Source of the DNA: a virus
Virus record (IMG/VR): IMGVR_UViG_3300017971_000013
Span: 1-64,000 of that record
Direction: 5' to 3' (one strand)
DNA length: 64,000 nucleotides
The translations under genes were made by a program, and so were the position numbers. A model generated the notes under the pieces. That model was given only the letters and a program-made list of their open reading frames with translations, had not been told where the DNA came from and searched no databases. This document shows, piece by piece, positions 3 to 63,061 of this stretch (position 1 is the stretch's first letter; each line of letters starts with the position of its first letter).

Positions 3-686
3 GAAGGGGAGAATGATGCCCAATGGTCGAATTGGGCCGAGCCTTGTTTTGGCACCTACGTCGATTTCAAAATACCAACTATCGGCGCGATGGTCTGGGT
101 TATGTTTGAAATGGGTAACCCCCGCTTTCCTGTTTACATGGGGACAAATATTGCCACCTCAGATGTACCTGCTGCTGTAGTAGGAGATGACGATGGAACT
201 GGCGTGGACAAAGGCACTTACCCGCCCGGCGGAACTATACTCGGAAATAGAGTACCCGATGCCCAACGGAACGTTGCTTACCCTAATAACAATGTCTGGC
301 GTACACCGGACGGTATTCAAATTGAGGTGGATGACTCTGAAAATGCCAGAAGGATACAAATTTATCACCCCTCTGGTACTTTCGACGAAGTTTACGAAGA
401 TGGTTCCTCTTCAACATTGACATGTGGCAATGTTAGCGATTTCACTAAAGCCGATAGGATTGAATACACCTCTGAAAATAAGACGGTAGAAGTCGGACTT
501 GACAAAGAAGAGGTTGTTGGTAATAACAGCTCTTTTGCCGGTCCTGGTGGTGCGCTTTTAATGGGTATAGAGATGGATGGTCCGACACTCCGATTGACCA
601 TCAACGGTCTATTTGTTAGTATATCTGCGACTGGTACTCTTCTCCTGAACGGCCGAGTCGTACTTCCTTCAGGAGGACCTATCTAA
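3..686 (+). CDS. Baseplate hub/spike protein, gp5/VgrG OB-fold type (5' partial)
   Basis: Frame is open from the window start; WAEP..P.IG..VWVMFEMGNPRFPVYMG OB-fold motif, followed by a beta-repeat region. Confidence 0.8.
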   Translation, partial: EGENDAQWSNWAEPCFGTYVDFKIPTIGAMVWVMFEMGNPRFPVYMGTNIATSDVPAAVVGDDDGTGVDKGTYPPGGTILGNRVPDAQRNVAYPNNNVWRTPDGIQIEVDDSENARRIQIYHPSGTFDEVYEDGSSSTLTCGNVSDFTKADRIEYTSENKTVEVGLDKEEVVGNNSSFAGPGGALLMGIEMDGPTLRLTINGLFVSISATGTLLLNGRVVLPSGGPI

Positions 687-4571: not shown

Positions 4572-6671
4572 ATGGCAAATCGAGCACGCTCTGACTTGCG
4601 TGGTCGAGGTATCTTCCTTGAATTAGACTTAGACACCTTCCTTCAAAATCCACCCCCCGGATCCTTCCTAGAAATTCTAATCAAGAGAAGCACCTCGGCC
4701 ATCTCCCTTTTTCATGATGATTCTATCCCTATTATTTTTGGACCGGCGGATGTTGCAACGTTGCCCACTGACAATGTTATACATGACGAAGGTCTAGAAG
4801 AAGCTACCATCTATTATTATCGTGTGTGGCAGCGTTTTAATGATGGAATCATAGGGCCAGATGAAAATTGGGAATCTAACAAAGATTTAATAATCATTGG
4901 ACTTTCGCTAAAAAGATATAGAGATATTGTATATGAGCCTGACTACAAAGATATTCAGGCTCTTGTTACGTTTGGGCCTATTGTTGCTGGTAATGTGTAT
5001 GGCGTCACTGTTCATGGTGCTAATTACACCTATCTGGCCGCGCCTGGCGACACAGAATACGATGTCGTAGATAGTCTAATTCTTTCTTTAGCGGGCGTAC
5101 CAGACATAACGACACAGGATGATGGGGACTCATTTCAAATCTTTGTTGACATGGCTTATCCTAATCCCCGTATTCCTCTTGTCGTATCTGGTATTAACGA
5201 TACCTCTGTGGAATTAGGTTACTACTTTGCGCCGAAATGGTTTCGTGAATTCGTAGCAGACATAGGAAACTCATCCGTTACCCAACGAAAATTTATGGAC
5301 TATATAGGTAATGTGTATGGGTTTTATAGAAACTTAATAAATGTCTTTGGGACTTTCCAAGATAATCAGAAAATTCTCTGGCAGATCGCCTCTGATTTTC
5401 TTGTCTTTTACAGGTTTGATCCAGATAAAGAAGACTTATCCCTTCAAAGGCGCTTGATTAATGACTTGGTTTATCTGTTTCAGAGGAAAGGTAACTGCCG
5501 GACAATTATTCGCGCGGTTAAAATTGTAACCGGCTGGGATGGTTATTGTGAATCAGCAGGCGGTCCTGGTTACCATTCTAGGACGTTTCATACCTATGAC
5601 GGACAATCCTATATACATAAATTTCTTATACCAGGTTCTGCTTTTACTTTTGATGTGCTTGCTCCTGATATTACAGTCAACGGTACCGCTGCAGGTCCAG
5701 GTAACCAAGGCTTAACAGCTTATGCTGTTGGTAATTACTATGATTGGCCTTATAACACTGATTATGACTACTCTTTTTGTATAACTGCTTTTGGTGAATT
5801 TTTTGCCATCACAGATTTAGTTCAAGACACAGCGTTGTTCACAGATACTTTAAATTTTGATGGGGTGTTACCAACAGATAACATGTCTGATGAATTTTTA
5901 AACGGCGCTATGATTTCTAATACCCCGTTAGGTGGTAATCTTCATGATCTTGTGTTTCCTGCAGGTACGTTTATTGTTGGGCAGTTAGCTGGCCTTCAAT
6001 GTATGTTGAATGTCCTAGGTACTCCAGAAGGTCAGGTGTTGTGGAACACAGATGATACTATTCGTGTAGAGTCTGCAGATCCTGCTTTCACAGGCACTGT
6101 TTCACAAATAGGCTTTTCTGCTTTCTACACAAATACTGGTACGTGGGCGACAAGAGATCCTCATCTTGGCCTTACTATCTATCCTGGAAGACATGCGCTG
6201 TTGTTTGATACTAGGGATTTTACTCGGCGCGATACGCGTTTCGAGGAATTTTGGTATCTAATTAATAGGTCGATATTTGAACGGCCTCTGACTTCAACAG
6301 ATGCTATCTATTGGACACAGGGTTATGCAGAAGAATCGGGCCGCACAGATGGGTACTTTGGTACAACCGTAATCAAAGTGAACCCTGCTGATTTGGTTGT
6401 TGTTCCAGGTGCATATGATGATGGTACTTACTGGATAAATCCTAATAGAAATCAAGATATCTCTTACAGGATAGTAGGAACAGATGTGGTGGAGAATGGT
6501 TTTGTTGTTGATTTAGGTAATAAACCACCTATAGGAATCACGTCTAAAATAGACGAGCGTTTTTACATCTTCAACAAAGAGAATCATAGAAAAGATTCGG
6601 TTATCAGAAATTCACTTGATTCTTTCTATTCTAAATTTAGGCATAAAGTACTTATGTATCATGACGCATAA
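4572..6671 (+). CDS. Baseplate/tail protein with P2 gpI-like domain
   Basis: QRRLINDLVYLFQRKGN...VKIVTGWD motif; position after the J-like gene. Confidence 0.7.
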   Translation: MANRARSDLRGRGIFLELDLDTFLQNPPPGSFLEILIKRSTSAISLFHDDSIPIIFGPADVATLPTDNVIHDEGLEEATIYYYRVWQRFNDGIIGPDENWESNKDLIIIGLSLKRYRDIVYEPDYKDIQALVTFGPIVAGNVYGVTVHGANYTYLAAPGDTEYDVVDSLILSLAGVPDITTQDDGDSFQIFVDMAYPNPRIPLVVSGINDTSVELGYYFAPKWFREFVADIGNSSVTQRKFMDYIGNVYGFYRNLINVFGTFQDNQKILWQIASDFLVFYRFDPDKEDLSLQRRLINDLVYLFQRKGNCRTIIRAVKIVTGWDGYCESAGGPGYHSRTFHTYDGQSYIHKFLIPGSAFTFDVLAPDITVNGTAAGPGNQGLTAYAVGNYYDWPYNTDYDYSFCITAFGEFFAITDLVQDTALFTDTLNFDGVLPTDNMSDEFLNGAMISNTPLGGNLHDLVFPAGTFIVGQLAGLQCMLNVLGTPEGQVLWNTDDTIRVESADPAFTGTVSQIGFSAFYTNTGTWATRDPHLGLTIYPGRHALLFDTRDFTRRDTRFEEFWYLINRSIFERPLTSTDAIYWTQGYAEESGRTDGYFGTTVIKVNPADLVVVPGAYDDGTYWINPNRNQDISYRIVGTDVVENGFVVDLGNKPPIGITSKIDERFYIFNKENHRKDSVIRNSLDSFYSKFRHKVLMYHDA

Positions 6672-6916: not shown

Positions 6917-9900
6917 ATGGCTGAAACTCCTAAACTTCCCGTTGTCGTAATGGATACATACGACAAGACTCTTAATTATGCAGAGGTTACTTTTCAGCGC
7001 GGCCGAGATGTTGGCGACTGGGAACTGAATGAAGCACAGAAGAATATTAGAAATAAGTTGAATAAGGCGCTGAGCCTTACTGATACTAATGCTGTGTTCT
7101 TTCGTCCCGATGGTGCTGTAAATTCTCCGGTACTTGCCTCTGTCAATCCAAACGAATGTTTTGTAAATGCCGGTTGGTATTTGTTAGACGGCCAGCCTTA
7201 TTATCTTGAGGCAAACACGACAGTACCTCTTCCTGCTCCTCCTGGTGTCGCGCCAGACAGACTTGACTACATTTATCTGACGTTGACAGAGGACTCCTTT
7301 GCTAACACGGATGTTGAGCACCCGGAGATTGGAGAAACGGCTATAAGGAGAAAACTTGAAGTTACACCTGGTGTTTCTTCTGGTGTTCTTCCTCCTACTG
7401 GGTCTGGGGGCACGTACGAGGGTTCGACCAGAGACTTTGTTATTGGTGCTGTCATTCGTCCTGTTGGTGATCCTAATGTTACGCAGCCTCAATGTCTGAA
7501 TCTGACTAAAAAAGCTGAAACCAATAATGTCCAGCAACGTCTGGCACTAACTTACTTTTTTGGCATAGAAGGACGTGTGTACTGGGAAGATGGGCAGCTG
7601 TCTCTCAACCTTGCGCCAGCCGCTGGGGAAGATGTTGATTTTGGTATTCCAGGGCAAGTCTTCAATGCAGCCTTAGGTGGTGCACCGGCAATTCCTTTGT
7701 CACCTATTAACATTGCCGATGGGCAATGTTTGGTATGGAATAATCCTGAGCGTTATCAATTCGCAGGCGGTTCTTCTCTGTGGTTAGATTTAACTGCGGA
7801 GAATTTTAATTCTTATGAATTTACTGACGATGGTACAAATCAGAATCTTGATAGTAAATTCATATTGGCTGTAAGGCACGATGATGACCTTGTGTGGGTC
7901 CACAATCATGTTAGGCAGCTGAGCGGCACTGTGCTTAATCTCAGGGATACTAACCAATACAATCCTAGCTTGGCCAGGGTAGGCTCCGGTGCCTTTGCTA
8001 AAACCGCAGATGCGTCCGTTGGTTTTGGTTCAGCGCAGGTTGAGCTTTCTGTGTTGACTGGAACCGACCTCAGAATTTCTGCTGGAGTTCTAGGTAGGAA
8101 GAATAATATTTTATCAATACCAGCAGACATTGATATTGATGTTACTGTCACTCCAGGTATTAATTTTTCAGCCTCTGGAGCGTACTTTGATTCTAATGGT
8201 GATAACTACATTTGGCTGGATTCGACTGACCTAACAGCTACGGGCTTACAGATAGATAATACTTTTGTTGATCGTTCTGCGGCTGTACCGGCGCATCTGT
8301 TTGTTGGTTTTGTACACATAGGTCAGAATGTGGCAAATCCTTTGCTGGAAACTAATACTTTTGTGCGAAATCTTTTGCGCAAATTGAATGCTGACAATCC
8401 CGTGTTAACTGTCAACCCTAATACACTCGTAGGGCCACAGGATGTTGAATCAGACATTTATGGGGATTTCAATTCTCTAGGTGAAGCTCTTGCTTTTTGT
8501 GCATATGCAGGAGAGCAGCAGGCCTCTGGCGCCGGGTTCGAGGCAGGTTTTACTATCAAACTTTTGCCTGGAAGACATAGCCGCCCAGATGTTCTAACAG
8601 AGCCATATAGATTTCATGGGATTAGAAGACTGACCATTGAGGGCTCAGGTGGGAAAGAAGGAACGCAACTGGTTAATCCTTTATTTTCTGCTTCTAACTA
8701 TTGTAGTGGCGTTACATTTAGGGATATTGAATTTTATCATGATGGTGTTCAAGCGTATTCTATGTTTGAATTAGGCAATATGGATGACGCTACGGACACT
8801 GTTGGCACACCTTTGTTTTTCTATGATTGTAAATTCACAGGTGATGCGCTGAACACGTTGTCTATCTTTAATGCTGCATTTCAATTGACAGAACAATTAA
8901 TGCGCATTGAAGCTTATAGGTGTCATTTTAATACTTGTTTAGCTATTTTTACGCTGGCTGCAGGTACAGCTAGCAATCTGAAATTCCATGATTGTATCAT
9001 TACTGTAGGTGGCGTCACTGCTCCTTCACCTTTTGTTCTAGATGCCACACCAAATAGTGGTGCGCCCGACCTTTGTCAGAATGTGGAGTTTGTTCGAAAT
9101 ACAATTACTTTGATTGTTGCTGCAAACACGCCTGTTATTCAAGGGCGAAATGCTAAGAACTTCTTGTTTAAAGATAACAAGGTTGAATTTGCTGGAACTG
9201 GAAATAACACTGGTCCCATTGTTTCTTTTCTTGATACTGCTCCTTTGCTCAGGAGCGAGAACATTGTAATAGATAATAATTATATTATTACCCCTAATCC
9301 TAGTGTTCAACCTCCTCTGAACAGCAGTTTAATTACTATCAATATAAATGTTGGTGGTCTTCCTGACGCAAGCCTATCAACTGCCACAACACATGTTCAT
9401 GTGACTAATAATCATTTTTATCAAGGATCGAATGGTTACTACATTCCATTTGTTACTTTGGTTGGTTTAGATGATTTTTATGTTGCTAACAATAATATTG
9501 ATAAACGTGTAAATCAAAGCACGCTTTCTGCGCCCGGTCTAACGGCTAACATTGGCAGCTGTCAAAGAGGGGAATTTAAAGGTAATCGCTTTCGAGGCTT
9601 GTCAACAGCACCTTTCATTCCTTCTGGGTGCCAAGATATTGCTATTAAAGACACAGAATACACAAATCTCGCCCAATCTTATGAAACTGTTCAATTTGGT
9701 GTCGCAGCCGTTGTTGTCGCTATTTTTTGTGATGGTTTAACTATTGATAACTTTAGAGTTAATGATGCTGAATTAGGTAACGGTACTTTTGGTTTCTTGT
9801 TCTGCAACGATGTTCTTGTTAAGGATTCGTACTTTAGAAACGTTGGTGCGGCTGGCGGCGCTAATCCTATGTGTTCTATGGACACTTGTACCAATTTCAC

Positions 9901-12386: not shown

Positions 12387-13793
12387 ATGTCTAGAACTCG
12401 AGACAAACGACGGTTAAGACTGACAAACTTCTTACATGTTCCCACTGACTTAATAGAAGAAGATGAACTGCGTAAGAAACTGTTGTTTTTTAACCCATTA
12501 GCCGCAGCTAACATGTATGGCGGTAACAAGAAGAATGTAGATCCTTACTACTCTTTATTCTATGGTTATGATGAAGATGGTAACTATCTTGTGCCGCGAA
12601 CTATGTTTCCAGAATATCCACGCGATGATTCTTTTGTTCACTACATCATGGACTCTGTAAGGTTGCCACATGGCAACTTTAAACACCCACCTCTTTATCC
12701 TCATCAAAAAGAAGCTTTCAGAGCCTTGGTATCTGCAGATCCAAATCATGGGAAATCTGTCATAAGCGGTTGTGGTTCGGGAAAGACCATAATCGCTTTT
12801 GCATATATGAGATGGATTTCATGTCGTACGATAATTATCGTAGATACAGCTGTGTTGCGTGATCAGTGGATAAACGAACTTGTTACTCATTGTCGTGTAC
12901 ACATGGAGAACATAGGAATTGTTCAGGATAGAAAATTTGAGGTGGGTAAACAATTCCATGTGACTATAGCCATGTTACAGACTCTCAGGAATAGAGCTTT
13001 GACTGACAGGTTCTGGCGTAATTTTGGTCTGACAATCTATGAAGAAGGTCATCAATTTGGTGCAGAGACCTATGCAAAAGTGATGCCGCAATCCTTAGGT
13101 AAAAGATTATTACTAACTGCTACTTACAATAGACAAGATCAGAAAGATAAGGTTTATAGGTTACATGTTGGAGATCCTTGTTATAAGAATCTAGATACCC
13201 CTCATGTTCCTGACATTTGGGTGTACCCAACAGGCCTCTCTTTTATGCGTACTAATCTTGGCGCCCAGATTAGGAGATTCGAACCTTTTGGTAATTTCCA
13301 AAGAGAGAATGTTAAATCTAGAATGGCGCGAAGTCTTCCTCGTAATAAGAGATTAATAGAATTGTTAGATCGGGCATATGTGGCAGGTAGAGAGATTCTG
13401 TTTCTATCTGATAGAATCCAACAGCTTAGGTTTTTGTATGAACACTTTAAATCAAAAGCCTATGATTGTGCGATGATTTTAGGTAAGGCTCATGGTGGGA
13501 TGTCTGCTGAAGAAGCTAAGAATTATCGCATGATATTTGCCATCAAACATATTTGCGACAAAGGCTTCAATAAACGGTCACTAGATATTCTATTTGAAGG
13601 TCTGTTTTATACTTCGCCAAACTCTATACAGCAGAGGTTCGGGCGAATACTTCGTTCTTATGATGGTAAGAAGAAACCAATCGTTGTTCTTTTTGAAGAT
13701 GATGACGAGTTGTTTGTCAAACAGACAAAGAAAATGGTACAAACAGCTAAGAGGTTGTGGCCAGAATTGAAGGTACGACGATTTCAAGGATGA
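12387..13793 (+). CDS. Superfamily 2 DNA helicase (UvsW/XPB-like)
   Basis: GCGSGKT Walker A, EEGH Walker B variant, LTAT, QRFGRILR motif VI. Confidence 0.85.
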   Translation: MSRTRDKRRLRLTNFLHVPTDLIEEDELRKKLLFFNPLAAANMYGGNKKNVDPYYSLFYGYDEDGNYLVPRTMFPEYPRDDSFVHYIMDSVRLPHGNFKHPPLYPHQKEAFRALVSADPNHGKSVISGCGSGKTIIAFAYMRWISCRTIIIVDTAVLRDQWINELVTHCRVHMENIGIVQDRKFEVGKQFHVTIAMLQTLRNRALTDRFWRNFGLTIYEEGHQFGAETYAKVMPQSLGKRLLLTATYNRQDQKDKVYRLHVGDPCYKNLDTPHVPDIWVYPTGLSFMRTNLGAQIRRFEPFGNFQRENVKSRMARSLPRNKRLIELLDRAYVAGREILFLSDRIQQLRFLYEHFKSKAYDCAMILGKAHGGMSAEEAKNYRMIFAIKHICDKGFNKRSLDILFEGLFYTSPNSIQQRFGRILRSYDGKKKPIVVLFEDDDELFVKQTKKMVQTAKRLWPELKVRRFQG

Positions 13794-16718: not shown

Positions 16719-17962
16719 TGCTGCAAGAGACGAGAGCTAGAACTGTAGATTTAGAAAAACTATTACTATCTGCTCTTATTTTTGAGTGCGAAGATGATCG
16801 TCTTTCTCCTGTGTTTGAAAAACTACAGCCAGAGTTCTTTGTAAATCGTGTGCATCAAAAGGTGTATCGGCAGATCTTCGACTCGTATTCTGAATATGGA
16901 ACATTGCCAAGCGGCAATCTCATAAAGAATTCAAATCCTCAATTCGAATTAGAGGATTCTGGCGATGATTTGTTGGCTGTCACCGATTTATTCATAGATG
17001 TTGTGTTGGAGAGAAGGACTGTGGAGTTGTGTGCAAAGGTGCATAAACGCTCAGCTTTTGATACGCACGGCGCAATCGCACAAGCCATTAATGAGTTTGA
17101 AACACTACAGACTATAGCCGGGCCTGCTACAGGACAGGCAGGTGAAATTATGGAGTCTGGAGATGTGGTAACTGTCATTGATAAACATCTTGAGTCATTG
17201 TCAGAGAATGAAGAAGGCGACGTGATTAAAGGTGTGCCCACGCCTTGGCGCTATTTGAATAGGTTGATTTTAGGATGGGGACCTGGGCTACATGCATGGA
17301 TGGGTGAAAAGAAGAACATGAAAACATGGACTTCTTTGTATGGCGCTGTAGAGGCGTGGAAAGATGGATACCCTGTTGTTTATGTCACAAAAGAGATGAC
17401 GAAAGAAAGTGTAGTTTTGAGAGTAGCTTGCCTGATGTCTGGAGTTGATTTTGACTCAGTCAGAAGTGGTAAAGTGACAGACGAAGAATTAAAGGATATA
17501 AAGGCACATCTAACAGCTCTCTCTTCTCAATCTATACCATTCTATGTAGAGAGGATGGACGGTTTTGGCGTTGAGACTGTCACAAGGTTTCGATCTTTAA
17601 TAAAATCTTACGGGGCGAAGTTAGCAATATTTGATGGTGTTTACCTTGCTGGTATGAGAAAATGGGATCTCATTGGTGACATTACAACCATGCTGGCTGA
17701 AGCCGGTAACAAGTTGGATTGTGCCATACTAGCCACCATGCAGATGGAAGAAGACGGAGTTAAATACTCAAAAGCCATTCTTCAGGACTGTGAGACGGCT
17801 ACAGCGATAAAACTAAATCACATGATGCAAGAAGCAGTCGTAGAATTGCTCTTGACTCGCGACGGAACAACTGGTAAATTCCTCATAGACGCAAAACCTG
17901 CGACATCTTTTCGCGAGAAACAGCAGCCAAAGACAATGTCTCGACAGACCTTACCTATTTAA
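16715..17962 (+). CDS. DnaB-like replicative helicase
   Basis: N-terminal E..LL...F....HQKVY domain, GVPTPW..LN, GEKKNMKT, TKEM, DGVY, ATMQ motifs. Confidence 0.85.
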   Translation: MMLQETRARTVDLEKLLLSALIFECEDDRLSPVFEKLQPEFFVNRVHQKVYRQIFDSYSEYGTLPSGNLIKNSNPQFELEDSGDDLLAVTDLFIDVVLERRTVELCAKVHKRSAFDTHGAIAQAINEFETLQTIAGPATGQAGEIMESGDVVTVIDKHLESLSENEEGDVIKGVPTPWRYLNRLILGWGPGLHAWMGEKKNMKTWTSLYGAVEAWKDGYPVVYVTKEMTKESVVLRVACLMSGVDFDSVRSGKVTDEELKDIKAHLTALSSQSIPFYVERMDGFGVETVTRFRSLIKSYGAKLAIFDGVYLAGMRKWDLIGDITTMLAEAGNKLDCAILATMQMEEDGVKYSKAILQDCETATAIKLNHMMQEAVVELLLTRDGTTGKFLIDAKPATSFREKQQPKTMSRQTLPI

Positions 17963-17976: not shown

Positions 17977-20900
17977 ATGCTAGGCCAGCTTCTTTACGAC
18001 CTTTCTACTTCTTCTCCGGCACAACGTAACGATTTCGTGGAGGATTGTGAGCGCCGTTATGGTGTTTATAAAAAAGGATCTTTTTACAGACAAGATATTG
18101 AATTTGTACTTTCGTTTATTGTCGTAGAGTGGCTGAAGAATATTAGAAAAAGGCATCTAACAGCTTGTTTTGTCGGAGATACGTTTGGAGCACCCGCTAC
18201 TTTTTTCAAGAGAACTATGGAAGAAATAGGCGAGGTAAGCCTAGATATCTTTGGTTTCTCTTCAGCTAAAAGAGACAGTTTAAGAGATGTTGTTAGACAT
18301 GCATTACCAACATTCCGGTACACAAGCTGTGATCTTTGGGGTGAAGATTATAACAAGCTTCTAAACTACTTCTCTTCTATAGAGAATCTGGAATCTTTTT
18401 GTTTTTCTGCAGGCATATTTATTGAGCCGAAAAAACATCAGCGCCCGTGGTTCTTTGGAAAAGAAGGTGTGCGTGAGTGCAATCTTCATACCTTGAGCCC
18501 AACGCTTCATGCAGATTTCGTACTTGCATCTTTGGAAATGCTGTTACGTACGGTTAGAGGGCCTCTTGTTCTTTTCACAAGAAAGCCTTTTGAAGACTAC
18601 TTTGAAGATTATCAAGATTTCTTCACAGGCTACGTGAAGAGGTTATTTTTGAAAGTGTTTCATTGTAATGTTGCCAATGGGCAACTTTCGATTTTGATGC
18701 CTAAGCCAAATAATTTCTATGGCAAGGTCCCACCTCTTGTTTCAGCCATACAAACCTATGATAGAAACAAAGACTTTCAAAAAGCTTATGACACTATTCA
18801 ACTGAAACCCAAGGCTAATTTTCTACTAAAAGACGCTTTGGGTGCTTTTAGTAAGTCTATAATAAAGAGAGACTTTTGTGATTATGTAATTTCTCGGCTG
18901 CCTGATTCAAGCGAACACACTATTCGGCTGTTTGAGCAACATGAAAAAGATCCTATTGAGATTCAACAGGAAAAATTCAACGAGCGTTATACTCAGCTTA
19001 AGAAGGTAAGAACACGTAATATTATTAAAGAGTGTGATCGTAAACCACACTATGTTCGCGTGTACCTTTCTCGTAATGCTACTTCGTTGTCTTTTTCGTG
19101 CGGTAAGAGCGCGTATCCTGTGGTTATGAATTGGTTGTCTATGCAGGATAATGTTCGTTTCCCTAATGGACATGCTGTTAACACTTTTGTTATGCAGTTG
19201 AGACTTATTAATATTTACCATGATGAAACTTTTCTAGAGAGATTCGAGGCCGCAATGGTTTCTTATGGAATAGAGACGGTCGTTGATTATGCAGCCGAAA
19301 GGTTCCTTGAGAAATATCGTCGCGCAATGAAGAGAAAGACAGCGCCTTTTGAGCAATGGGTAAGACATACAAAGATTAATGGCGAAGAGACAATCGAGTG
19401 GAAAGAACACCACAAGGAAGATGGCAAGCGCAACGCTGACCCTGCTGTCTATCAGATGTTTAGGCAGCGTTTGAGAGAAGAGTTTCCTGACCCAGGCACA
19501 ACGTGGAAATATCTTTATGATGACGCTGCGCGCATGGCTATGACAGGTTGTGGGTTTGGGGGCCATAAGATGGCGCTCGGAAAAACACGTTTGGCCATTA
19601 TGTTGTGTTATGCGTTTGGTGGTAATCATAACCTGTTTGTTGTCGAAGCTAAGACTGTTAGCGAGTGGATGAAGGAGATCACTAAGCTTGGGCTGGAAGA
19701 CAAGGTTCGTCAGATTACATGCGAAGATGATCTTGATAATCTTTCATTTATTAACATAATTCCGTATACCAGACTCTGGCGCGAGCTGAGACCGGAACAT
19801 GTTCGCTATCGTGTAACTATTCTTTCTTCTGGTGAGGTTATGCCTGTAAGTAAGGATGAGTACGATATGCTCCGCGCTTCTCAGATGTCGAATGGTAAAA
19901 TGTTGCCTAAAAGAGAGCGGCAATTCGATTTTGAAAAGAAGATCCCTTTTAAACACACCTTCTGTGGTTGGTTATCTCGCAGAGGTAATATTTGTGTAGC
20001 GGTTGCAGATGAGGTACACAGAGCCTCTAATGATTCTAGCCAAGGGATTTCGTGGCAACAGTTGAAGGCCAAGCATAAATATGGAATGTCAGGTACTCTT
20101 GTCAGCAATAAGCCAAAAGCAATGCTGAGGCTTGATACCTCTGTTGCTGGGGAATGTACTCCTCTTAATCCTTACAGCTATAAACAACCTTATTATGATG
20201 TAAGTACAAAAGAATATAGCGGCTCTGGGTTTAAGAGGTTTGAAGAGCGGTTTGTCCAGTTTGTAACTGTGTACCAAAATGGTAAGCAGATAACTAAGGA
20301 AATACCTGCAGCAGCAGACAAAGAGGCATGGTGGGATTTGCACGATCCCTTGATTCTTAGGCGACGGCCAGAAGAACCTGAAGTTAATCGTGTCGTTGAT
20401 TTTTCAACCGCAGATGTCCAAGAGGTGATTGTTCGCGCAGACAAGAAGCATGTGTTGTTCTATAAGAAGTGGCTTATGGAATATGGAACATGGTTTTTGG
20501 AGAAATTATCGGGCGGAAAGAAAGCTGCGTTTGCTTCTACCAACCAGATTCTTGGACATCTTTCTAAGCTACGTCTTGTGTCAACTGTGCCAGGTTGCGA
20601 TAAAGTCTCTGGCCAAGATATTGACCCATCGTTTAGGTGGCCAGGAGGCAAGACTAAACTTCAGAATCTTATTCTTGACGATGTTAATAATATGGTTGAG
20701 AAACAAGGTTTGAAGTTCATCATTTTTTCTTCTCACCCGGATTTTTTAAAGGAGATGCACACTTACTTCACTGAAGAATATGGAATTGAGGTAGGTCTTT
20801 TTACAGGTGATATTCCTATCGATAAGAGAATTAAAACCCTGAATCATTTTAGAGATGAAGATACGATGCAGGGTTTATTAATGAGTACAGGTGCGGCGAA

Positions 20901-21279: not shown

Positions 21280-22337
21280 TGAGTAACCTACCTTTTATCA
21301 TTCAAGGCGATTACATCCGATTCACTCCAAAGGTACATAAATACACTAAAGGTGAATTCACTTTTAAGGCCAATACGCGCGGCAATAAGATTATTGTCGG
21401 CAAGGTTAACGATTACCTGAAATGCCCTAACTGTGATTCACTTCTGTATGTGTCTTTTGAGGTAGATTCTGTAGCAGAAGCAAATGACTGTTTAGAGTTC
21501 ATCAGGTCAAATCTTAGATTGCCAGGAATCAAATCTTTAGCCTCAGGAAGGTTTGTATCTTTTTCTTCTAAACGGCATTTAGATGACCCAGAATGTCCTT
21601 ACAGGACAATCTCTCAAGATGTTAAAGTAGATGCAGATGATATTTTTAACTGGGTTGTTTCTGACCCTGTTGAAGCAATATGTATGTTTATCTATCGAAT
21701 CTGGGTAGAGGTAGAAGACACCTACATGAGTGCAGAAAAGGGAAAGGTTCTGGATATTATGCGGCAGCTTAAGATTTTTATAGATAAAACAGAGCTGCCA
21801 GATTATCTGCAAATGAATTACTTACATACGTGGCGATCTCTTTATAGGGTGCCTGTATGGGAAACCTTGAAAGATACAACAAACTTGTACAGCAGATGTG
21901 CCAGTTATTGGGAAGATAAAAAGACAGAAGGTCCTTTCAAACTTGTACTCACACACTCTAAAGCTATGAAAGCTTTGTTCCTTGATTTGTCTGGAGCAGC
22001 TAAGCTTGTAGAAGAAGGACGTCCTAAATCAGAAGCAGAAAAGGTAGCCTCCGCTCTCAGGTATGCTTTTCCTGAGTTCATAACAACGATGCCCATTATT
22101 CTAAATGTTTTTAGGTCGCTATCTCTAGAGATACTTCAAGAGGTTATGCTTTATATTTTTGAACCTTTTACTCATAGTGAAGGTGAACCTTGCCAAGAGA
22201 CAACGTTAGAAGATGAAATCATAGAAAAAGAATCTGTAGAGGAAATAAAAGATAGCGATTCTATTGAAGATTTCATCCATAATGCGTTGAGCAACTCTGA
22301 GGTTACTGCAGAATGGAAGACTTCTATGAGTTCTTAA
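21279..22337 (+). CDS. Hypothetical Zn-binding protein
   Basis: CPNC...H....CPY motif. Confidence 0.55.
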   Translation: MSNLPFIIQGDYIRFTPKVHKYTKGEFTFKANTRGNKIIVGKVNDYLKCPNCDSLLYVSFEVDSVAEANDCLEFIRSNLRLPGIKSLASGRFVSFSSKRHLDDPECPYRTISQDVKVDADDIFNWVVSDPVEAICMFIYRIWVEVEDTYMSAEKGKVLDIMRQLKIFIDKTELPDYLQMNYLHTWRSLYRVPVWETLKDTTNLYSRCASYWEDKKTEGPFKLVLTHSKAMKALFLDLSGAAKLVEEGRPKSEAEKVASALRYAFPEFITTMPIILNVFRSLSLEILQEVMLYIFEPFTHSEGEPCQETTLEDEIIEKESVEEIKDSDSIEDFIHNALSNSEVTAEWKTSMSS

Positions 22338-28045: not shown

Positions 28046-28387
28046 ATGACAACTATTGCAAGGCGAAGACGTTTGTTGAAGCGTGCGTACGACAAAGAGA
28101 AGCAGGACGCGACGTTTATTTCTGGTAAGACTCAACCTGGTTCTGGCAATATAGAGCTATATGAAGAAGATGCGATAAGTGATGTTTTTCTTTTACAATC
28201 AAAACTTTCTGAGCAGAAATCGTATAGCTTGCGATTGAAAGATTTGAAGAAACTGTTGGAACATGCTAGTCAACAAGGTCGCGTCCCGTTGTTTCGACTT
28301 CAATTACAAGATGTCGATGTGTTAATGGTCTTTGGTCCCTATCAAGATTCCGTTAGAGATGCACTTATTGAAGAGTATGGAGGGTGA
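28046..28387 (+). CDS. Hjc-like PD-(D/E)xK resolvase/nuclease
   Basis: QPGSGN...D....LLQSK...SYSL pattern. Confidence 0.55.
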   Translation: MTTIARRRRLLKRAYDKEKQDATFISGKTQPGSGNIELYEEDAISDVFLLQSKLSEQKSYSLRLKDLKKLLEHASQQGRVPLFRLQLQDVDVLMVFGPYQDSVRDALIEEYGG

Positions 28388-28420
28388 AAACTTGCCACTT
28401 GGCAACGTTAGGTGTAATGT
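28388..28420 (+). promoter_or_regulatory. parB promoter overlapped by a 22-bp palindrome
   Basis: TTGCCA-17 nt-TAATGT; AAACTTGCCACTTGGCAACGTT covers the -35 box. Confidence 0.6.
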
Positions 28421-28483
28421 AGCAACATACTACGGACGGTATTTAGAACAAGGACTGTGAAAAACATTCTTACAGGAGAGGTT

Positions 28484-29626
28484 ATGTCAGAACCTATTTT
28501 GGTGCCCGTTAAAAATATCAAGGTCGTATCTAATGTGCGAAAAGAGATTGGTGATCTTACTGAATTGATGGATTCTATCAAACAGGTTGGTTTACTCCAG
28601 CCTATTGGCGTTTCTAAAAAGGGAAAAGGTTATACCCTTGAGTTTGGTAATCGTCGCTTGGCTGCGTATAAAGAGCTTGGTGAGAAGAAGATCCCTGTAA
28701 TTGTTGTCAAGGCTGGCAAGAAGAAGACAGACCGTGTCGTGAAGCAAGTCATTGAGAATATGCAGCGCACGGATATGACTGGTATCGATGAAGCTAGGGC
28801 CATCAGGGATTTGATGGAGAATACTGGTTGGACACAGGAGAAGGTTGCAAAAGCTCTGGGTCTATCTAAGTTTGTTGTCAACAAAAGACTGGCTCTACTT
28901 AAGAAACTACCAGAAGATGTACAGGAAGCTGTTAGGGATAGGAAAATTTCATTATCTCACGCAAAGGCCATCGCAAGCGCAGACTTAGAACCTACTGAGC
29001 AGATTGCTTTGTTGGGCGTTGCAAAGGAGCTGTCTGGCAATGAGTTCGAGGCGTTCGTCAAAGAGGGCACTTCTTCTGGGGGGTTTCCGCAAGCGAGCGG
29101 GAAGATCCAGTACGAAGAAATTGAGCGCCCTCGTCTGTGCAAGTTCTCCGATTTCAAGAAAAGACTCAAGGCTCTCGACAAGGAAAAAAGAGAGCATGAA
29201 AAAGGGATCGCCAGACTAACTAAGAAACTAGAGAAAGAGAAATCAAAGAAGCGTAAGGTTGACCAGGAGAAGATCTCTGAATTCCGTAAAGAGATCAATC
29301 AGTCGAAGCGTGAGCTTGAGGTTCTCTCTAGAATTGAAGAGTGGGCGGAAGGTTGCTTTATTATGAAGATGGTCAAGCGACCTATTCAAGAGAATAAGAG
29401 CGACAATGAAAAAACAAAACCTCGCAAAAACAGGGTGGAAGAAAAGGCTCCAGCTAAGAAGAAGAAAGCTAGCAAAGGAGCAGGAGATGGGAAAGCTTCC
29501 AGAACTAAGAAGACTTCCTCGAAAAAGCAAAGTACAAAGCGTGCATCAGCCAGCGGTAAAGGGAATAGCAAGAAAACAACGAAGAGGTCTGGTAAGAAAC
29601 TAGGTCTCAAGAAGAGTAAGAAATGA
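28484..29626 (+). CDS. parB: ParB/Spo0J-family CTPase with HTH and Lys-rich C-terminal tail
   Basis: SIKQVGLLQPI, FGNRRLAA arginine patch, IENMQRTDM, WTQEKVAKALGLS HTH, ISLSHA. Confidence 0.9.
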   Translation: MSEPILVPVKNIKVVSNVRKEIGDLTELMDSIKQVGLLQPIGVSKKGKGYTLEFGNRRLAAYKELGEKKIPVIVVKAGKKKTDRVVKQVIENMQRTDMTGIDEARAIRDLMENTGWTQEKVAKALGLSKFVVNKRLALLKKLPEDVQEAVRDRKISLSHAKAIASADLEPTEQIALLGVAKELSGNEFEAFVKEGTSSGGFPQASGKIQYEEIERPRLCKFSDFKKRLKALDKEKREHEKGIARLTKKLEKEKSKKRKVDQEKISEFRKEINQSKRELEVLSRIEEWAEGCFIMKMVKRPIQENKSDNEKTKPRKNRVEEKAPAKKKKASKGAGDGKASRTKKTSSKKQSTKRASASGKGNSKKTTKRSGKKLGLKKSKK

Positions 29627-30489
29627 CCATTGTACTTTCCCGTTCCCGCCTTCTGAAAAGACGAAAACTATCTCCTGTCTCTTTAGAAGGTAATATTTCT
29701 GTTCCGCAAAACTTTGAAGAACGTTTAGAGAAACTTAACTCTAAGATTTTACCAAGCACTGTGGAGGCGAAGGAACGGGTAGCAAACAAACTTCATTCCG
29801 CTCTTAAAAGAGAATGCTTGAGGGAAGCTGAGAAGCGTGAAGCCAATAGGCAATTCTTACATAAAAAACTTGGCATTAAGAATTCAGGTTTTCATGCTTC
29901 TCAGTTTCACTCTTGTGTTCGCCGCATCTATTTTGATCTAACTCTAGATAGAAGTGAATTCGAGGAAGATGAATCGGCTTTGTTTTTCTCTATTCCAGAG
30001 GATGTTCAGAATAGAATCTTTGGTACAGGGGATTTTATACATGACAGACTTCAGAGGTATTTAAAGAATGCTTTTGGGGAAGATGTCAGCATTGAATTTC
30101 CTGTGGTATCAGCAAAGACTAATTCTTACGGACGTATTGATGGCGTACTAGTTATTGATGGTATTCTGTATATAATTGAAATTAAGAGTATGCGAGAGAA
30201 TGCTTTTATTCAATGTATTACAGGGCCTCTAGCTAAATTTAAGCGCCAAGGCTGTGTTTATGCTGAATTCTTAAATATTAAACAAGCTATTTTTATTCTA
30301 GAGAATAAGAACAATCAAGAGTGGAAGATCTTTGTTGAGACATACTCGGATGATGACTTCGAAGTTATTAGACAAGACAAGGAGACGGTTAACGTTGCCA
30401 TGCGGCAAGGTAAGCCGCCCATCAGACATAAACTATGTACGGCAAAGATGCCTTTAGATTTTTGTCCGTACTCATCGATCTGTTGGTAG
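29623..30489 (+). CDS. Cas4-like PD-(D/E)xK exonuclease
   Basis: SCVR, GDFIH, GRIDG, EIKS, Q..VY, C-terminal C...CPY...C. Confidence 0.8.
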   Translation: MTIVLSRSRLLKRRKLSPVSLEGNISVPQNFEERLEKLNSKILPSTVEAKERVANKLHSALKRECLREAEKREANRQFLHKKLGIKNSGFHASQFHSCVRRIYFDLTLDRSEFEEDESALFFSIPEDVQNRIFGTGDFIHDRLQRYLKNAFGEDVSIEFPVVSAKTNSYGRIDGVLVIDGILYIIEIKSMRENAFIQCITGPLAKFKRQGCVYAEFLNIKQAIFILENKNNQEWKIFVETYSDDDFEVIRQDKETVNVAMRQGKPPIRHKLCTAKMPLDFCPYSSICW

Positions 30490-32542: not shown

Positions 32543-32564
32543 TGCAGTTTTCGGAGTTGATAAA

Positions 32565-34081: not shown

Positions 34082-34143
34082 GCAACGGTCTGGTGACAAG
34101 GTGTATTCCCCATACACTTTTTAGGTTCGATTCCTAACGTTGC
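34082..34143 (+). ncRNA. tRNA-like mini-element
   Basis: GCAACG/CGTTGC acceptor-like stem, GTC-TGGT-GAC mini D-arm, GGTGTAT/ATACACT arm, TTAGG-TTCGATT-CCTAA T-arm. Confidence 0.6.
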
Positions 34144-34187
34144 AACTTAGCAACGTTAAAATTCAACACACAAAAAGGGAGGGTATC

Positions 34188-36630: not shown

Positions 36631-36683
36631 TTGACAGTTCAGGTCAATGAGCTTATTGTTCAATGTTGCCAGGTGGCAACGTT
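36631..36683 (+). promoter_or_regulatory. Sigma70 promoter with a 22-bp palindrome over the start site
   Basis: TTGACA-17 nt-TATTGT, then AATGTTGCCAGGTGGCAACGTT. Confidence 0.7.
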
Positions 36684-40530: not shown

Positions 40531-40598
40531 ATTCTAACTCTTAACCGTTGCCTATCGACTAACATTGCCGGTAGGCAACATTAAGCGTTTGAGTTTTG

Positions 40599-42213: not shown

Positions 42214-42251
42214 AAGCCCCTTGCATTGATTTGCAGGGGGCTTTTCTTTTT
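42214..42251 (+). terminator. Intrinsic terminator
   Basis: AAGCCCCTTGCA...TGCAGGGGGCTT followed by a T-rich tail. Confidence 0.7.
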
Positions 42252-42322
42252 GCCTTCAAAAGTGTTAATATTGCCACTTAGCAACGTTTAGGTGTCAATC
42301 TTATTACTTTTGGAGCGTAATA

Positions 42323-44425
42323 ATGACTAGGTACTTTTTTGCAGGAGGGGACTCTAAGCCCGCAATTAAGTGTATGCTCGCATGTGACGTCAAAAATATT
42401 CTGTTTAGCTTCTTCTATATACAGAAAAAGCGGCAGAAGAATTTTGATGCCCTTGTAAGTCAGCTGACAGAACTCAAGGAAAAAGGTGGTTATACTTTTA
42501 TCTTAGATTCTGGTGGCTTTACTTATAAAGATGTAGCGGGCCGAGGGTTTCAAACTGTTAGAAGTGAAGCAGGCGCTGTACGGACAAAGAAGCTAGATCC
42601 ATATGCGTATTTAGAGGAATACACCAAATTTCTTATACAATATGGACACTTGTTTGATGTCTGTGCAGAGTTTGAACCGGACGAAGTGTTCGGCGGCGTA
42701 GATATTGTAGATGAGAACAGAGAGAAGATGCTAGCCACCTTCGAGAAGCACGGTGTAGAGGTTAACCTCATGCCTGTGTTTGATTCTTTCATAAGGGATC
42801 TAGATACGTGGGAAGAGTGGTGTGAAGATTCTAGATACAAGCATCTTGGTTTTGTGGGAAATGATATACGTCTTGCTTCTCGTCTTGTAAATAAGGCGCA
42901 TAGACACGGCAAAAAAGTACATGGTTTCGCGCAGACTAAGATTGAGGATCTTCAAAGAGCTAAGTTTGATACTGTGGATTCTACAGGATGGATTTCTGGG
43001 CAGAAATATGGAGAGGTGTTCATATTTCAACGTGGTAAATGGACCAGACTAAACGCTACCCAAAAGAATAAGCGCAAGCTTTATAAGAACTATTTCAAGG
43101 CAATTGGGATAGATTGGGACCTCATCAATAGAGATGATCCCAATGAGTTACTTAAAGCCTCATGTTTGTCCTGGAAGCGTTTGTTTGATCACTTTGAGGC
43201 TAGGTCTATATTAGAGACAGCCAGTACCACCTCCTTAAAGAGAGCAGCACCAACAAAGCCTGTTCGTGGGGTGTTGATGCAGTTAGCTGAGCTTGGTGTA
43301 GACAAAAAACCACGGGAGCGTAATGTCCCAAAGAAGACAATCAAAGTGGGGGGTAAGATACGGCTTATGTCGACGAAAGCGACAGCGTTCGACGCACAGA
43401 AGATCATTGCACGGGCGTTGGAGTTGTCGGAACTCCCTGTCGAGGAAGCCTGGGAAAAAGCCTTTGGGCGAGATGAGCAAGAAATAACTGTTGATGAGCA
43501 AGAGATGAACGCGTTGTTTAAGCCTAAAAGAGCCAGAGGGTTTAGCCCAGAATGGTATGCGTTGCTAGACCAACAACGTCAGGTAGAAGAGGCATTAGAA
43601 AAAGTCTCGGCAGACAATGAAAAAAGAAATAATAACTGGGACAAGTTCCTGGTGACTGAGCCTCTTATGTCCGAAAACGAGGTAATTTCGCAGGGTTCCA
43701 TTTTAGGTGACACTACAGACTACACAAATATTAAACAAATTCAGGGAAATACCGCAGAAATGGCGGATGGATCGCACGTTGCTAAAGACAACGTTGTTAA
43801 TAGCAACAGAGAAACTTTAGACAGTCAAAACGACCCTACAAAGCTCACATCATCGACGATTCGTAAAAAATTGTCCGTCCATGCGTGTCATACGTGCGCA
43901 GTTTCTACCGATTGCTCTTATTATCAACCTGGCTACTTGTGTTATTACAAACCAGCATTTCAAACGTTGCAAAGTCGCAATGTTAAAGATGTGATGCAGG
44001 CGTTAGAGTATATAACGGACAAGAACCTAGAGAGAACGATGCGCGCGTTTTTGATGGAAGAGATACAGATGGGGGGTCAAGTAGACCCTCAAGCATCAAA
44101 TGTGTCTCAGTTAGCTTTCGGGCAGTTAGAGAAGCTAGCTTCACTGAAACATGCAACCAGACCCGAATCTTTCAAGGTAACACTCGAAGGACAAGGTGAG
44201 TCAGCGTCTATCTTGACCCAACTTTTATCGGGCGCAAAACAGCCCGAAGAGCCAAAACAGTTAGAAGCGCAAGAGACTAATATGATAGATGTGACACCTA
44301 AGAAGAAAGAGAGAATAGAAGAACGCGCGATAAGAGAGTCAAAACAGCAAGGTAACAGACAAGATGAATATGACATTACTGAATTAGCTACGATACAGAA
44401 AATGTTTGTTCCTGATCAACAGTAG
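42323..44425 (+). CDS. DpdA/TGT-like transglycosylase fused to a C-terminal Cys4 + helical domain
   Basis: ILDSGGFT, LMPVF, VHGFAQT, TVDSTGW...KYG TGT-fold motifs; C-terminal CHTC..C..C. Confidence 0.7.
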   Translation: MTRYFFAGGDSKPAIKCMLACDVKNILFSFFYIQKKRQKNFDALVSQLTELKEKGGYTFILDSGGFTYKDVAGRGFQTVRSEAGAVRTKKLDPYAYLEEYTKFLIQYGHLFDVCAEFEPDEVFGGVDIVDENREKMLATFEKHGVEVNLMPVFDSFIRDLDTWEEWCEDSRYKHLGFVGNDIRLASRLVNKAHRHGKKVHGFAQTKIEDLQRAKFDTVDSTGWISGQKYGEVFIFQRGKWTRLNATQKNKRKLYKNYFKAIGIDWDLINRDDPNELLKASCLSWKRLFDHFEARSILETASTTSLKRAAPTKPVRGVLMQLAELGVDKKPRERNVPKKTIKVGGKIRLMSTKATAFDAQKIIARALELSELPVEEAWEKAFGRDEQEITVDEQEMNALFKPKRARGFSPEWYALLDQQRQVEEALEKVSADNEKRNNNWDKFLVTEPLMSENEVISQGSILGDTTDYTNIKQIQGNTAEMADGSHVAKDNVVNSNRETLDSQNDPTKLTSSTIRKKLSVHACHTCAVSTDCSYYQPGYLCYYKPAFQTLQSRNVKDVMQALEYITDKNLERTMRAFLMEEIQMGGQVDPQASNVSQLAFGQLEKLASLKHATRPESFKVTLEGQGESASILTQLLSGAKQPEEPKQLEAQETNMIDVTPKKKERIEERAIRESKQQGNRQDEYDITELATIQKMFVPDQQ

Positions 44426-45637: not shown

Positions 45638-45957
45638 ATAAAGTGACACTCCACCAACCACCTCTTATCTCCAAACATTGCCACTTGGCAACCTCAAAAA
45701 GTCCACGTTCATACATTATAAAGTGATATCTTCAGACATCCTCTGTCAGGCAGCGACCATTTCCTACCTTAGCTGTCATTTTCCACTCAAAAAGTCTCGG
45801 CGTGAACGTTATAAAGTGCATGTGTACCTACTATAAAGTGTATACAGAGCACCAATAAAGTGATGTCTCGCAGCAGTTGGTAGTACAGAGCTATGCGAAA
45901 TAAAGTGTTGCGGCGAAAGAGATAAAGTGTGGGCCAAAGTCTCATAGGAAATAAGTG
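45638..45957 (+). repeat. ATAAAGTG direct repeats (iteron-like)
   Basis: Copies at 45638, 45718, 45811, 45833, 45855, 45900, 45922; several spaced 22 bp apart. Confidence 0.75.
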
Positions 45958-46121: not shown

Positions 46122-46490
46122 ATATCCTTTTAAACCCTTGAAACCATGGGTGAAATTCGATCCATCTCTGAAACCCCTCATTTCGGGACACGAAAGCTCT
46201 ATATAATGATAAGGGCGACTGTGGCAAAATGTATACACTGTATATTCAGAGCAACACTTGGTTTGAGCGAGCAACCATGCGGACATGAGCAAATACGTCC
46301 TATACCTACATGTCATACTGTATACATTTTGCTACAGGGTGTTGTGTTGACACCTTGCCATTTGGCAACGTCTGTTCTGTACAGGTTGTACTTTTTTCAA
46401 CCTTTTTACACTCTGTAACATATTGTAATTATGTACAAAACAGCCACAGGCCGAAATTCGACCCAAAAAAACGACACAAAAAAGCGATGG

Positions 46491-47612: not shown

Positions 47613-48007
47613 GTACCCACCGTAGACCGTCAATCCCCTGACACTAAGCCACCTTGGCGCGCCACTATGACACAACGTCGGGCGCATGACTGCTCACCAT
47701 ATATGGACAACGCCGGAAACCCGCATGGTTACTAGGGTTACGGGTCAACTCGCCATATATGGCGACCCACCCCCTTAACGGAAGGGTGTCAAAATTTTGA
47801 CGCTCCAGGACAGATTTTAAATATTAGAAATTGATAGAAGTATATACTGCACATTAGGTTAATATTGCCATTAGACAATGTTAAAAAAAAAATAGAAAAA
47901 ATAAAAAAGAAGTGTAAAACTATAATTCTTTACAAACTGTACAAAATTGACAACACAGGAGAGAGCCTGTATAAACGGAGAGAGAGAGAGAGAGAGAGGA
48001 GGGAGAG

Positions 48008-51256: not shown

Positions 51257-51332
51257 AGAGTGTACATAACGTAGAAATGTGGTAAAATACTGAGGTTTCT
51301 GAAACTGTTGTTTTCTTCAGAAAGGTTGCCAC

Positions 51333-51515
51333 ATGACAACATCTAGTACTGAGGCCTTCAAAAGAGCATTAACTAATCTAAACTCTTTTGCGGCTAAAAT
51401 GGTTGGTCTAGGGTATCCAATACCTCCTAATGTGAATCAGAATGATCCGGAGGTTCAGACGTTATTACAGAGATGTAAAGAAAAATGGGGCGCGCCCAGA
51501 AAGAAGATAGAATGA
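51333..51515 (+). CDS. Hypothetical protein
   Basis: Start codon lies inside a 22-bp palindrome. Confidence 0.45.
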   Translation: MTTSSTEAFKRALTNLNSFAAKMVGLGYPIPPNVNQNDPEVQTLLQRCKEKWGAPRKKIE

Positions 51516-57566: not shown

Positions 57567-57596
57567 CGTTGCCATTGTGCAACTTTAGGAGTTTTC

Positions 57597-59796: not shown

Positions 59797-59804
59797 GAGG
59801 ACTG

Positions 59805-59843: not shown

Positions 59844-59864
59844 AACATTGCAAGGTGGCAACTT

Positions 59865-63022: not shown

Positions 63023-63061
63023 ACGTTGCCATGTGACAACTTTAAATATCTGGAGGCCATC

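Follow-up and report, generated by a model that had tools for sequence, protein, structure and literature searches.

The 64-kb window analysed here (positions 1 to 64,000 of IMG/VR virus record IMGVR_UViG_3300017971_000013) contains a parB gene, coding for a protein of the ParB/Spo0J/RepB family, and a palindromic sequence of which one copy precedes that gene and others are dispersed through the genome, referred to below as the lattice. The parB coding sequence occupies 28484..29626 on the + strand and specifies 380 amino acids plus the stop. Its frame is open from a first start codon at GTG 28457, an alternative upstream start, but ATG 28484 is the likely one since a Shine-Dalgarno sequence, AGGAG (28474..28478, + strand, read from sequence), is positioned 5 nt before it. 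An earlier note on this DNA had begun the gene at 28388, a coordinate which is merely that of the base following the upstream stop codon. In the 96-nt parB leader lies a 24-bp palindrome, AAAACTTGCCACTTGGCAACGTTA (28387..28410), within which TTGCCActTGGCAA (28392-28405) begins 5 nt past the upstream stop and ends 79 nt ahead of the ATG.

The window makes up the opening 64 kb of a record of 103,595 bp having a 123-bp terminal repeat and a completeness rating of 100%, and nearly all of its genes share a strand. Around 75 proteins of the phage were scanned for families, and about 100 open reading frames (ORFs) are without annotation. Those recognised include structural genes (baseplate, sheath, portal), a set for replication and recombination (helicases, DnaB, primase, DNA polymerase I, a UvsX-like recombinase, two Holliday-junction resolvases and a Cas4-like nuclease), ThyX, dUTPase, a GH25 lysin and a 7-deazaguanine set comprising FolE, QueE, QueD and a 700-residue DpdA-like protein. 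Neither an integrase nor a plasmid-replication signal was found in the complete genome. The DNA polymerase is approximately 25% identical to the nearest polymerase of a cultured phage, and a RecA-like query found no relatives. Its gene content suggests a virulent myovirus, one far removed from the phages in culture.

Profile matches, alignment and AlphaFold2 modelling identify residues 1-200 of the protein (28484..29083, + strand) as a ParB N-terminal, CTP (cytidine triphosphate)-binding domain followed by a ParB helix-turn-helix (HTH). In Pfam, ParB_N (PF02195) matches residues 24-94 with an E-value of 3.5e-10 and HTH_ParB (PF17762) residues 97-194 with an E-value of 1e-19; the family model TIGR00180 (ParB/Spo0J/RepB), whose cut-off is 58 bits, matches at 113. 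This portion is assigned to canonical ParB by Pfam, NCBIfam, PHROG and PDB searches alike. The closest solved structure is Myxococcus ParB (PDB code 7BNK, E-value 1.3e-21), among matches to ParB, Spo0J and Noc at 1e-16 to 1e-21 that include Caulobacter ParB, with KorB distant. The more specialised models all score under their cut-offs: the Noc model TIGR04285, which gives the best NCBIfam score, at 122 bits against 315, RepB model TIGR03454 at 49.6 bits against 201.5, and likewise the PRTRC model. As judged by these searches, the protein is a canonical-type, HTH-bearing member of the ParB/Spo0J/RepB family.

The motifs GNRR (residues 55-58) and ENMQR (residues 91-95) are both present, and the CTP-binding residues R19, R57, R58, E91, N92 and R95 occupy invariant columns in our alignment A1. 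The description of the ParB motifs as intact, made in the earlier note, holds for GNRR, ENMQR and the HTH but calls for a reservation at the catalytic positions: in the same alignment the Box I Gln is replaced by N17 and the Glu of GERR by N56. In Myxococcus ParB the corresponding Q52 and E93 are the catalytic pair for CTP hydrolysis, and alanine variants of these retain CTP binding with very little hydrolysis, close even when parS is absent and spread much more widely (10.1101/2021.05.05.442810). Substitutions of this sort at the catalytic positions are common among phage ParBs. Whether the phage protein hydrolyses CTP cannot be predicted from its residues because, although both catalytic positions are Asn, KorB, which has GARRYR and thus no such Glu, nonetheless hydrolyses 60-90 CTP per dimer each hour (PMC11790492).

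The C-terminal half is more unusual. AlphaFold2, run on an 18-sequence alignment, models the N-terminal half confidently (predicted local distance difference test, pLDDT, 80-96; HTH 83-96), followed by a disordered linker (204-218), helices at 221-254 and 261-297, and a disordered tail (298-380). The two long helices, forming a helical hairpin or coiled coil (residues 221-297; 29144..29374, + strand), and the Lys/Ser-rich end of some 75 residues had both been foreseen from the sequence, and the model and tail composition bear them out. The polybasic tail proper (residues 306-380; 29399..29623, + strand) contains 25 Lys, 5 Arg and 11 Ser, with a net charge of +25 and an isoelectric point of 11.2. 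Among 57 viral ParBs recovered no other end is so basic, the next-highest Lys+Arg fraction in the last 60 residues being 0.27. PF23552, the C-terminal dimerisation domain that is canonical for ParB and found in most homologues, has no match in the phage ParB, and in the predicted structure the hairpin and tail stand where it would be. No Pfam match was obtained for the C-terminal half and tail, and the ESM Atlas gave generic helical matches only; the label 'H1-like' is thus apt for the tail in composition alone, homology to H1 not having been found.

The palindrome of the parB leader is one member of a large set. The form TTGCCAnnTGGCAA occurs 13 times in the window at one mismatch or fewer, against 0.18 expected, and 21 times in the whole genome. 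Flanking positions that formed no part of the search are conserved as well, with AA at -4/-3 and TT at +16/+17. The resulting consensus, TAAC-R-TTGCCA-nn-TGGCAA-Y-GTTA, spans 24 bp around the 16-bp core GTTGCCAnnTGGCAAC. Scanning with a position weight matrix (PWM), its threshold set from 20 shuffles, yields 31 sites genome-wide, about one per 3.3 kb, a number that includes sites scoring at or just under the shuffle maximum; the copy ahead of parB, at 33.4 bits, is the third best of these. No other palindrome is enriched in the genome, nor does the genome contain a canonical parS, a Noc-binding site or a KorB operator.

Twelve of the 31 sites are fully intergenic in a genome of which 6.8% is non-coding. 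These typically begin 3-23 nt past a stop codon and end around 15-45 nt ahead of the next start. Those within genes fall in all three reading frames and in unrelated proteins, which rules out their origin as a protein motif. Changes in one arm (half-site) are never compensated in the other. Since arm changes go uncompensated, intergenic sites are in excess and all frames are used, selection at the DNA level is indicated: by this pattern the element is under selection as a double-stranded binding site for a symmetric protein and not as an RNA hairpin. An RNA or DNA hairpin was considered and rejected, as only two of eight single-arm changes are G-U-compatible, no site with two mismatches is compensatory and the flanking R/Y positions show no covariation.

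Within the window, the sites (cited by their 14-bp cores) lie inside genes at 417..430, 4761..4774 and 22190..22203, in a gene for a 1413-residue protein at 7713..7726, in helicase genes at 12663..12676 (an exact core) and 18671..18684 (the latter coding for 1100 residues), in a DnaB-like gene at 16904..16917, at the end of the Cas4-like gene at 30395..30408 and within the DpdA-like gene at 43967..43980. Intergenic copies are found at 34140..34153, at 36666..36679 (an exact core, with a start codon 24 nt on), at 63026..63039, 4 nt past a stop codon, and, in weaker form, at 40565..40578, there followed by a terminator-like hairpin. Two further exact cores, at 45678..45691 and 46355..46368, have doubtful small ORFs around them; a weaker site is at 47865..47878, and that at 51326..51339 falls on a gene boundary. 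The site at 57569..57582 lies directly past a DUF3310 gene (57318-57566) and 15 nt ahead of a small zinc-ribbon-like ORF. Lastly, the sites at 42271..42284 and 59848..59861 are each placed between a terminator-like hairpin and a gene start, those of the DpdA-like and QueD-like genes respectively. The hairpins in question, G+C-rich and followed by T runs (42200-42270 and 59800-59847), end immediately ahead of the two sites.

Positions such as these raise the question of promoters. TTGCCA in the parB-leader palindrome resembles TTGACA, and the earlier note had taken the palindrome to cover a -35 box and act as an operator on the gene's own promoter. The palindrome is real, but there is no acceptable -10 at 16-18 nt beyond it and a consensus scan finds no + strand promoter upstream of parB, so that an operator on the gene's own promoter, and autoregulation through it, is at most conjectural; parB may instead be co-transcribed with the resolvase gene upstream. 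More generally, a sigma-70 promoter with the left arm as -35 was rejected since the 21-site profile has no conserved -10 downstream. Site 59848 counts against a promoter too, its core being followed after 3 nt by an ATG (59865), and hence it cannot precede a normal leader. Unless read-through accounts for expression of the DpdA-like and QueD-like genes, the palindromes at 42271 and 59848 must each be overlapped by a promoter. A search for a single-subunit phage RNA polymerase (PF00940) gave no match, but its control was silent and it carries no weight.

What protein might read the lattice? An indication comes from plasmids of the repABC type, whose parS consensus is GTTNNCNGCNGNNAAC, that of pAMI4 being GTTGACAGCTGTCAAC (PMC9040568). 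The phage core GTTGCCAnnTGGCAAC agrees with this consensus at 12 of the 14 specified positions, its central GC being variable in the phage sites. We searched bacteria, one genome per species, for exact matches to the 16-mer, which yielded at least 120 stretches. Among the matches listed, 10 of 120 are inside a ParB/RepB-family gene or no more than 211 nt from one; on a rough estimate that assumes one to three ParB genes per genome, chance alone would give far fewer than one neighbouring pair of this kind among 120 matches. Of the six stretches with multiple copies, again among the matches listed, five flank parB. Two of these, in Novosphingobium (L308) and Croceibacterium (L343), have two or three copies taking up the space that separates a RepA-type parA from parB, and in another case (L289) the adjoining gene is a true RepB. 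The genomes in which the identical 16-mer adjoins parB are mainly those of Alphaproteobacteria. On the strength of these gene contexts, the palindrome is a genuine centromere (parS) type of the ParB/RepB family used in bacteria, which in turn makes the phage ParB more likely as its reader. Consistent with this, the ParB HTH is the sole six-frame match in the genome to HTH_3 or sigma-70 region 4, and no other recognised DNA-binding factor was found among the 75 or so scanned proteins. We judge that the phage's own ParB probably reads the lattice, the bacterial match giving support by kind rather than proof.

Several observations weigh against this assignment. The bacterial ParBs that adjoin the identical palindrome share only about 25-30% identity with the phage ParB, and their recognition helix reads SRSWLSRLL where the phage has SKFVVNKRL. 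A search of 5.8 billion proteins found no ParB more than 43% identical, the closest, at 43%, matching in the N-terminal half only. The replacement of the catalytic pair makes normal CTP turnover uncertain. Furthermore, a distant relative that has a ParB (G001; IMG/VR 3300037493_003022, 113 kb; loci L023, L089-L094, L167) has no palindrome lattice. This relative has 14 genes in common with the phage, among them, in the same order, those for a capsid-like protein (42% identity), portal, terminase, sheath, ParB, QueE, FolE and DpdA; its ParB is 39% identical in the N-terminal half only and differs in the recognition helix and C-terminal half. The palindrome is also absent from all 80 IMG/VR ParB loci scanned. 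Nor do repeated palindromes as such mark ParB phages, an idea we rejected: they occur at 3 of 33 phage ParB loci and are no commoner there than at dUTPase control loci (12 of 58). Two candidates met with in other phages were not accepted, GCTTCCnnGGAAGC with four copies in G001, judged unconvincing as its flanks are unconserved, and CAACGCnGCGTTG with three copies at locus L016, judged marginal.

The remaining difficulty is that the palindrome occurs in phages having no ParB-fold gene. A scan of viruses for the flanked site brought these to light. Three complete phages (G006, G008 and G012) carry 4-6 copies of GTTGCCAnnTGGCAAC in a gap of around 330 bp that has a DUF3310 gene on one side and an XRE-type HTH gene on the other (L277:5780-6110, L276:8300-8600 and L278:7940-8270, respectively). 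The gap also contains GGTTGC-n6-GCAACC variants and an AT-rich run, and may serve as an orphan centromere, as an origin or as an array of operators. Two others (G011 and G014) have one perfect 30-bp copy, CTTAAAAGTTGCCAATTGGCAACTTTTAAG, 11 nt past the stop of a gene for a 71-residue XRE-type protein (L279:3494-3535 and L280:7789-7830). The palindromes in these ParB-less phages may be orphan centromeres that borrow a ParB from host or plasmid, or operators for XRE proteins, and they therefore keep alive both a ParB/RepB of the host and an unrecognised phage factor as rival readers.

In the first of these alternatives the lattice is read by a host or resident-plasmid ParB/RepB, instead of or besides the phage ParB, so that the phage would borrow or interfere with host partition or organisation and its own ParB would be a competitor, a mixed-clamp partner or a decoy. 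That RepA/ParB-type systems in several bacterial genomes have the identical 16-mer as their centromere would suit this, as would the clusters and single copies in ParB-less phages, which resemble the use of an orphan parS. We nevertheless regard it as quite unlikely, given that the phage possesses a ParB with an intact HTH and places one of the best sites in the leader of its gene, and that 31 dispersed sites are unlike a plasmid centromere.

In the second, some other phage protein, not recognised as such, uses the palindromes as operators or regulatory sites, while ParB binds elsewhere or non-specifically in the service of replication or recombination. Such a role would suit the neighbours of parB, namely UvsX, two resolvases and the Cas4-like nuclease. 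The arrays of the ParB-less phages lie past a DUF3310 gene and directly upstream of an XRE-type HTH gene, and the phage has a comparable layout in its own DUF3310 homologue, site 57569 and the zinc-ribbon-like ORF: its DUF3310 protein is 38-42% identical to that beside the G008 array, with the lattice site directly next to it. The small ORF past the site has no homology to the G008 XRE gene. The distance of 18-45 nt from most intergenic sites to start codons, and the sheer number of unannotated ORFs, also leave room for such a factor. Against it, there is no XRE, HTH_3 or sigma-factor signal outside ParB, at least 17 sites are inside coding sequence far from gene starts, which would be unusual for a promoter-bound factor, and the palindrome is demonstrably of a ParB-family site type. 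We consider this second alternative unlikely. As to the zinc-ribbon-like ORF itself (within 57318-57845), it encodes 82 residues with a CxxC...CxxC pattern and has no family match.

The phage ParB has no partition partner. A six-frame search of the whole 103,595-bp record gave no match to the ParA-type ATPase families PF13614 or PF01656, nor any to tubulin/TubZ (PF00091), the positive controls working in each case; the deviant Walker A motif KGGxGK[ST] is likewise absent across the genome. A ParM profile search carries no weight, its control being silent also. The lack of a ParA, previously noted for the 64 kb, thus extends to the complete 103.6-kb genome, and the check for ParA or TubZ in its remaining part, which the earlier note had proposed, found neither. 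The protein itself fits this. The ParA-activating peptide, defined as [LFI]G[KR]G[LFI] (PMC12704722), gives no regular-expression match in the phage ParB, which begins 4 residues ahead of Box I whereas chromosomal homologues have an N-terminal LG(R/K)GL peptide. The phage ParB is truly ParA-less.

With neither a ParA in the phage nor a ParA-activating peptide in the protein, the system is not expected to carry out partition of the plasmid type. That the phage is a plasmid-like prophage, partitioned in the ordinary way by means of a host ParA, is highly improbable, even though partition systems classically combine a ParB with repeated parS-type sites and RepAB plasmids have sites of this type. 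Besides the two absences just given, the complete genome has no integrase or plasmid-replication signal, the sites are dispersed and not clustered, and the phage has the genes of a virulent myovirus, with a polymerase, helicases and a primase of its own as well as nucleotide metabolism and DNA modification. The non-partition role put forward previously is kept as the most economical reading, given the missing ParA and ParA-binding peptide together with parS-type sites.

We thus favour, at somewhat better than even confidence, a ParA-independent phage ParB whose cognate sites are the approximately 31 palindromes across the 103.6-kb chromosome and whose output is something other than partition. 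Site binding, CTP use, sliding and biological output we infer as follows. The ParB dimer would recognise the 16-bp core GTTGCCAnnTGGCAAC via its HTH and, binding CTP with its conserved Arg, GxRR and ENxxR residues, would close into a clamp. The clamp would then leave the site and slide, the many loading sites allowing the whole phage genome to be filled. The C-terminal helical hairpin may substitute for the usual dimerisation domain, while the +25 polybasic tail may add non-specific DNA binding or bridging. More likely than partition is that replicating phage DNA is organised, compacted or marked, or that transcription is controlled in the manner of KorB. With regard to control of the KorB kind, the 12 intergenic sites lie just ahead of genes, no promoter was detected at parB and no KorA-like HTH protein was found.

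We know of no function for the canonical HTH-bearing lone ParBs of virulent phages. The present case offers a concrete pair, a ParB with an unusual C-terminus (hairpin and +25 tail) and a defined 24-bp candidate site present 31 times. If the pairing is true, ParB-CTP clamps would coat or mark a whole viral chromosome, and plasmid centromeres, the orphan parS of ParB-less phages and phage genome organisation would become linked. Lone ParBs are common on phages and other mobile elements (PMC12704722). A bolder extension, to which we attach only a small chance, is that a long-lived, motor-less ParB clamp, loaded at plasmid-type centromeres placed about every 3 kb along the chromosome, together with the tail, would produce a condensed, self-marked phage nucleoid distinguishing phage from host DNA. 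The mark could, for instance, direct the DpdA 7-deazaguanine transglycosylase to phage DNA or shield that DNA from nucleases, among them the Cas4-like enzyme. Were this true, ParB-parS would be used for self-recognition by a viral genome, and not for segregation or gene control.

The phage ParB is a further variation on the known theme of ParA-independent ParBs, exemplified by KorB, Noc, BisD and VirB. KorB, with its 12 OB operators on the IncP plasmid RK2 (PMC11790492), shares with the phage system a ParB-family CTP clamp (predicted on the phage side), palindromes throughout the replicon and a role beyond partition. Each has another residue in place of the Glu of GERR (GARR in KorB, GNRR in the phage), and both have a long flexible region ahead of the C-terminal dimerisation module. 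However, KorB has a ParA partner, IncC, an IncC-binding N-terminal peptide and the clamp-locking KorA, none of which was found in the phage; its operator, TTTAGCSGCTAAA, differs from the phage site, and it did not condense DNA in vitro (PMC11790492). The phage ParB in turn differs from KorB in its helical hairpin and polybasic tail, and in being encoded by a tailed phage. RepB/ParB of repABC and RepA-ParB plasmids (PMC9040568) have the same kind of site, a 16-bp palindrome GTTG.CA..TG.CAAC, but these systems include RepA/ParA, have one to few clustered sites and serve partition, whereas in the phage there is no repA-repB-repC operon, RepA/ParA was not found, and around 31 copies are dispersed with the central GC unconserved.

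Noc of Bacillota is likewise a ParA-independent ParB paralogue with many binding sites dispersed on the chromosome. Unlike Noc, the phage ParB has no N-terminal membrane-targeting helix, scores under the cut-off of the Noc model and is matched with a different site sequence. BisD of ICEclc (PMC12409273) and VirB of Shigella (PMC10770331) resemble the phage ParB, as predicted, in being ParB-like clamps on mobile elements that regulate without a partition motor; they differ in having few sites, at specific promoters, and other C-terminal parts, and are not phage proteins.

A separate lead concerns DNA modification. The 7-deazaguanine genes of the phage are a QueE-like radical SAM gene and folE (31784-33086), the DpdA/TGT-like gene (700 residues; 42323-44425) and the QueD-like gene (59865-60299); no QueC was recognised among the proteins scanned. 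ParB could accordingly be an accessory to this pathway, analogous to DpdB or to the ParB that activates thymine dioxygenases, helping the DpdA-like transglycosylase to act on double-stranded DNA. Published studies tie ParB-fold proteins to DNA-modifying enzymes (PMC10164549 for DpdB; PMC13229309 for ParB-dependent 5mYOX; PMC12783734), and DpdB and the 5mYOX-associated ParB are, like the phage ParB, encoded near DNA hypermodification genes. In addition to encoding FolE, QueE, QueD and the DpdA-like protein, the phage has parB 2.2 kb upstream of queE-folE, with ParB near FolE also in G001, G002 and G003, and has lattice sites directly ahead of the DpdA-like and QueD genes. Across viruses, ParB-fold genes are within 10 kb of FolE in 18 of 80 FolE loci (L101-L180) against 1 of 80 dUTPase control loci (L183-L262). 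In Mycobacterium phage PenguinLover67 (L181), gene 1, which is ParB-like, overlaps the DpdA gene heading a QueC-QueD-QueE-FolE operon.

The proteins behind this association are, however, mostly of another subfamily, short 'ParB-like nuclease domain' proteins with the N-terminal domain only. For canonical-type ParB, the link to FolE is not significant (3 of 82 against 0 of 80), and the synteny with G001 reflects shared ancestry and is not independent evidence. Neither DpdB nor the 5mYOX-associated ParB has a ParB HTH. A DpdB/DndB-type protein is recognised by DGQQR or DGQHR (DGQQR in DpdB), an SspE-like C-terminal domain and an adjoining dpdA; the phage ParB has GNRR and a canonical HTH, with dpdA 12.7 kb off. 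We therefore hold a DpdA-helper role to be distinctly unlikely. It is a minor rival, and one that could be compatible with loading at the lattice and with the ParA-independent clamp favoured above.

The surroundings of parB were described earlier as recA, resolvase and Cas4-like genes, and are confirmed to be a UvsX/RecA-like gene, two Holliday-junction resolvase genes and a Cas4-like nuclease gene. The Cas4-like PD-(D/E)XK exonuclease gene (29623..30489, + strand) is probably translationally coupled to parB, since its ATG overlaps the parB stop (ATGA). On one side of parB is a resolvase-like gene of the small PD-(D/E)XK type (phrog_2002; 28046-28387) and on the other a second, different, RuvC-like Holliday-junction resolvase-like gene (phrog_1770; 30874-31398), with a SpoVS-like gene (30531-30887) between the latter and parB. 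Finally, at another viral ParB locus (L056), four dispersed copies of ATTCCGCGCGGAAT (at 1501, 3390, 7180 and 12046), resembling the Noc-binding site, suggest a lattice in a different phage.

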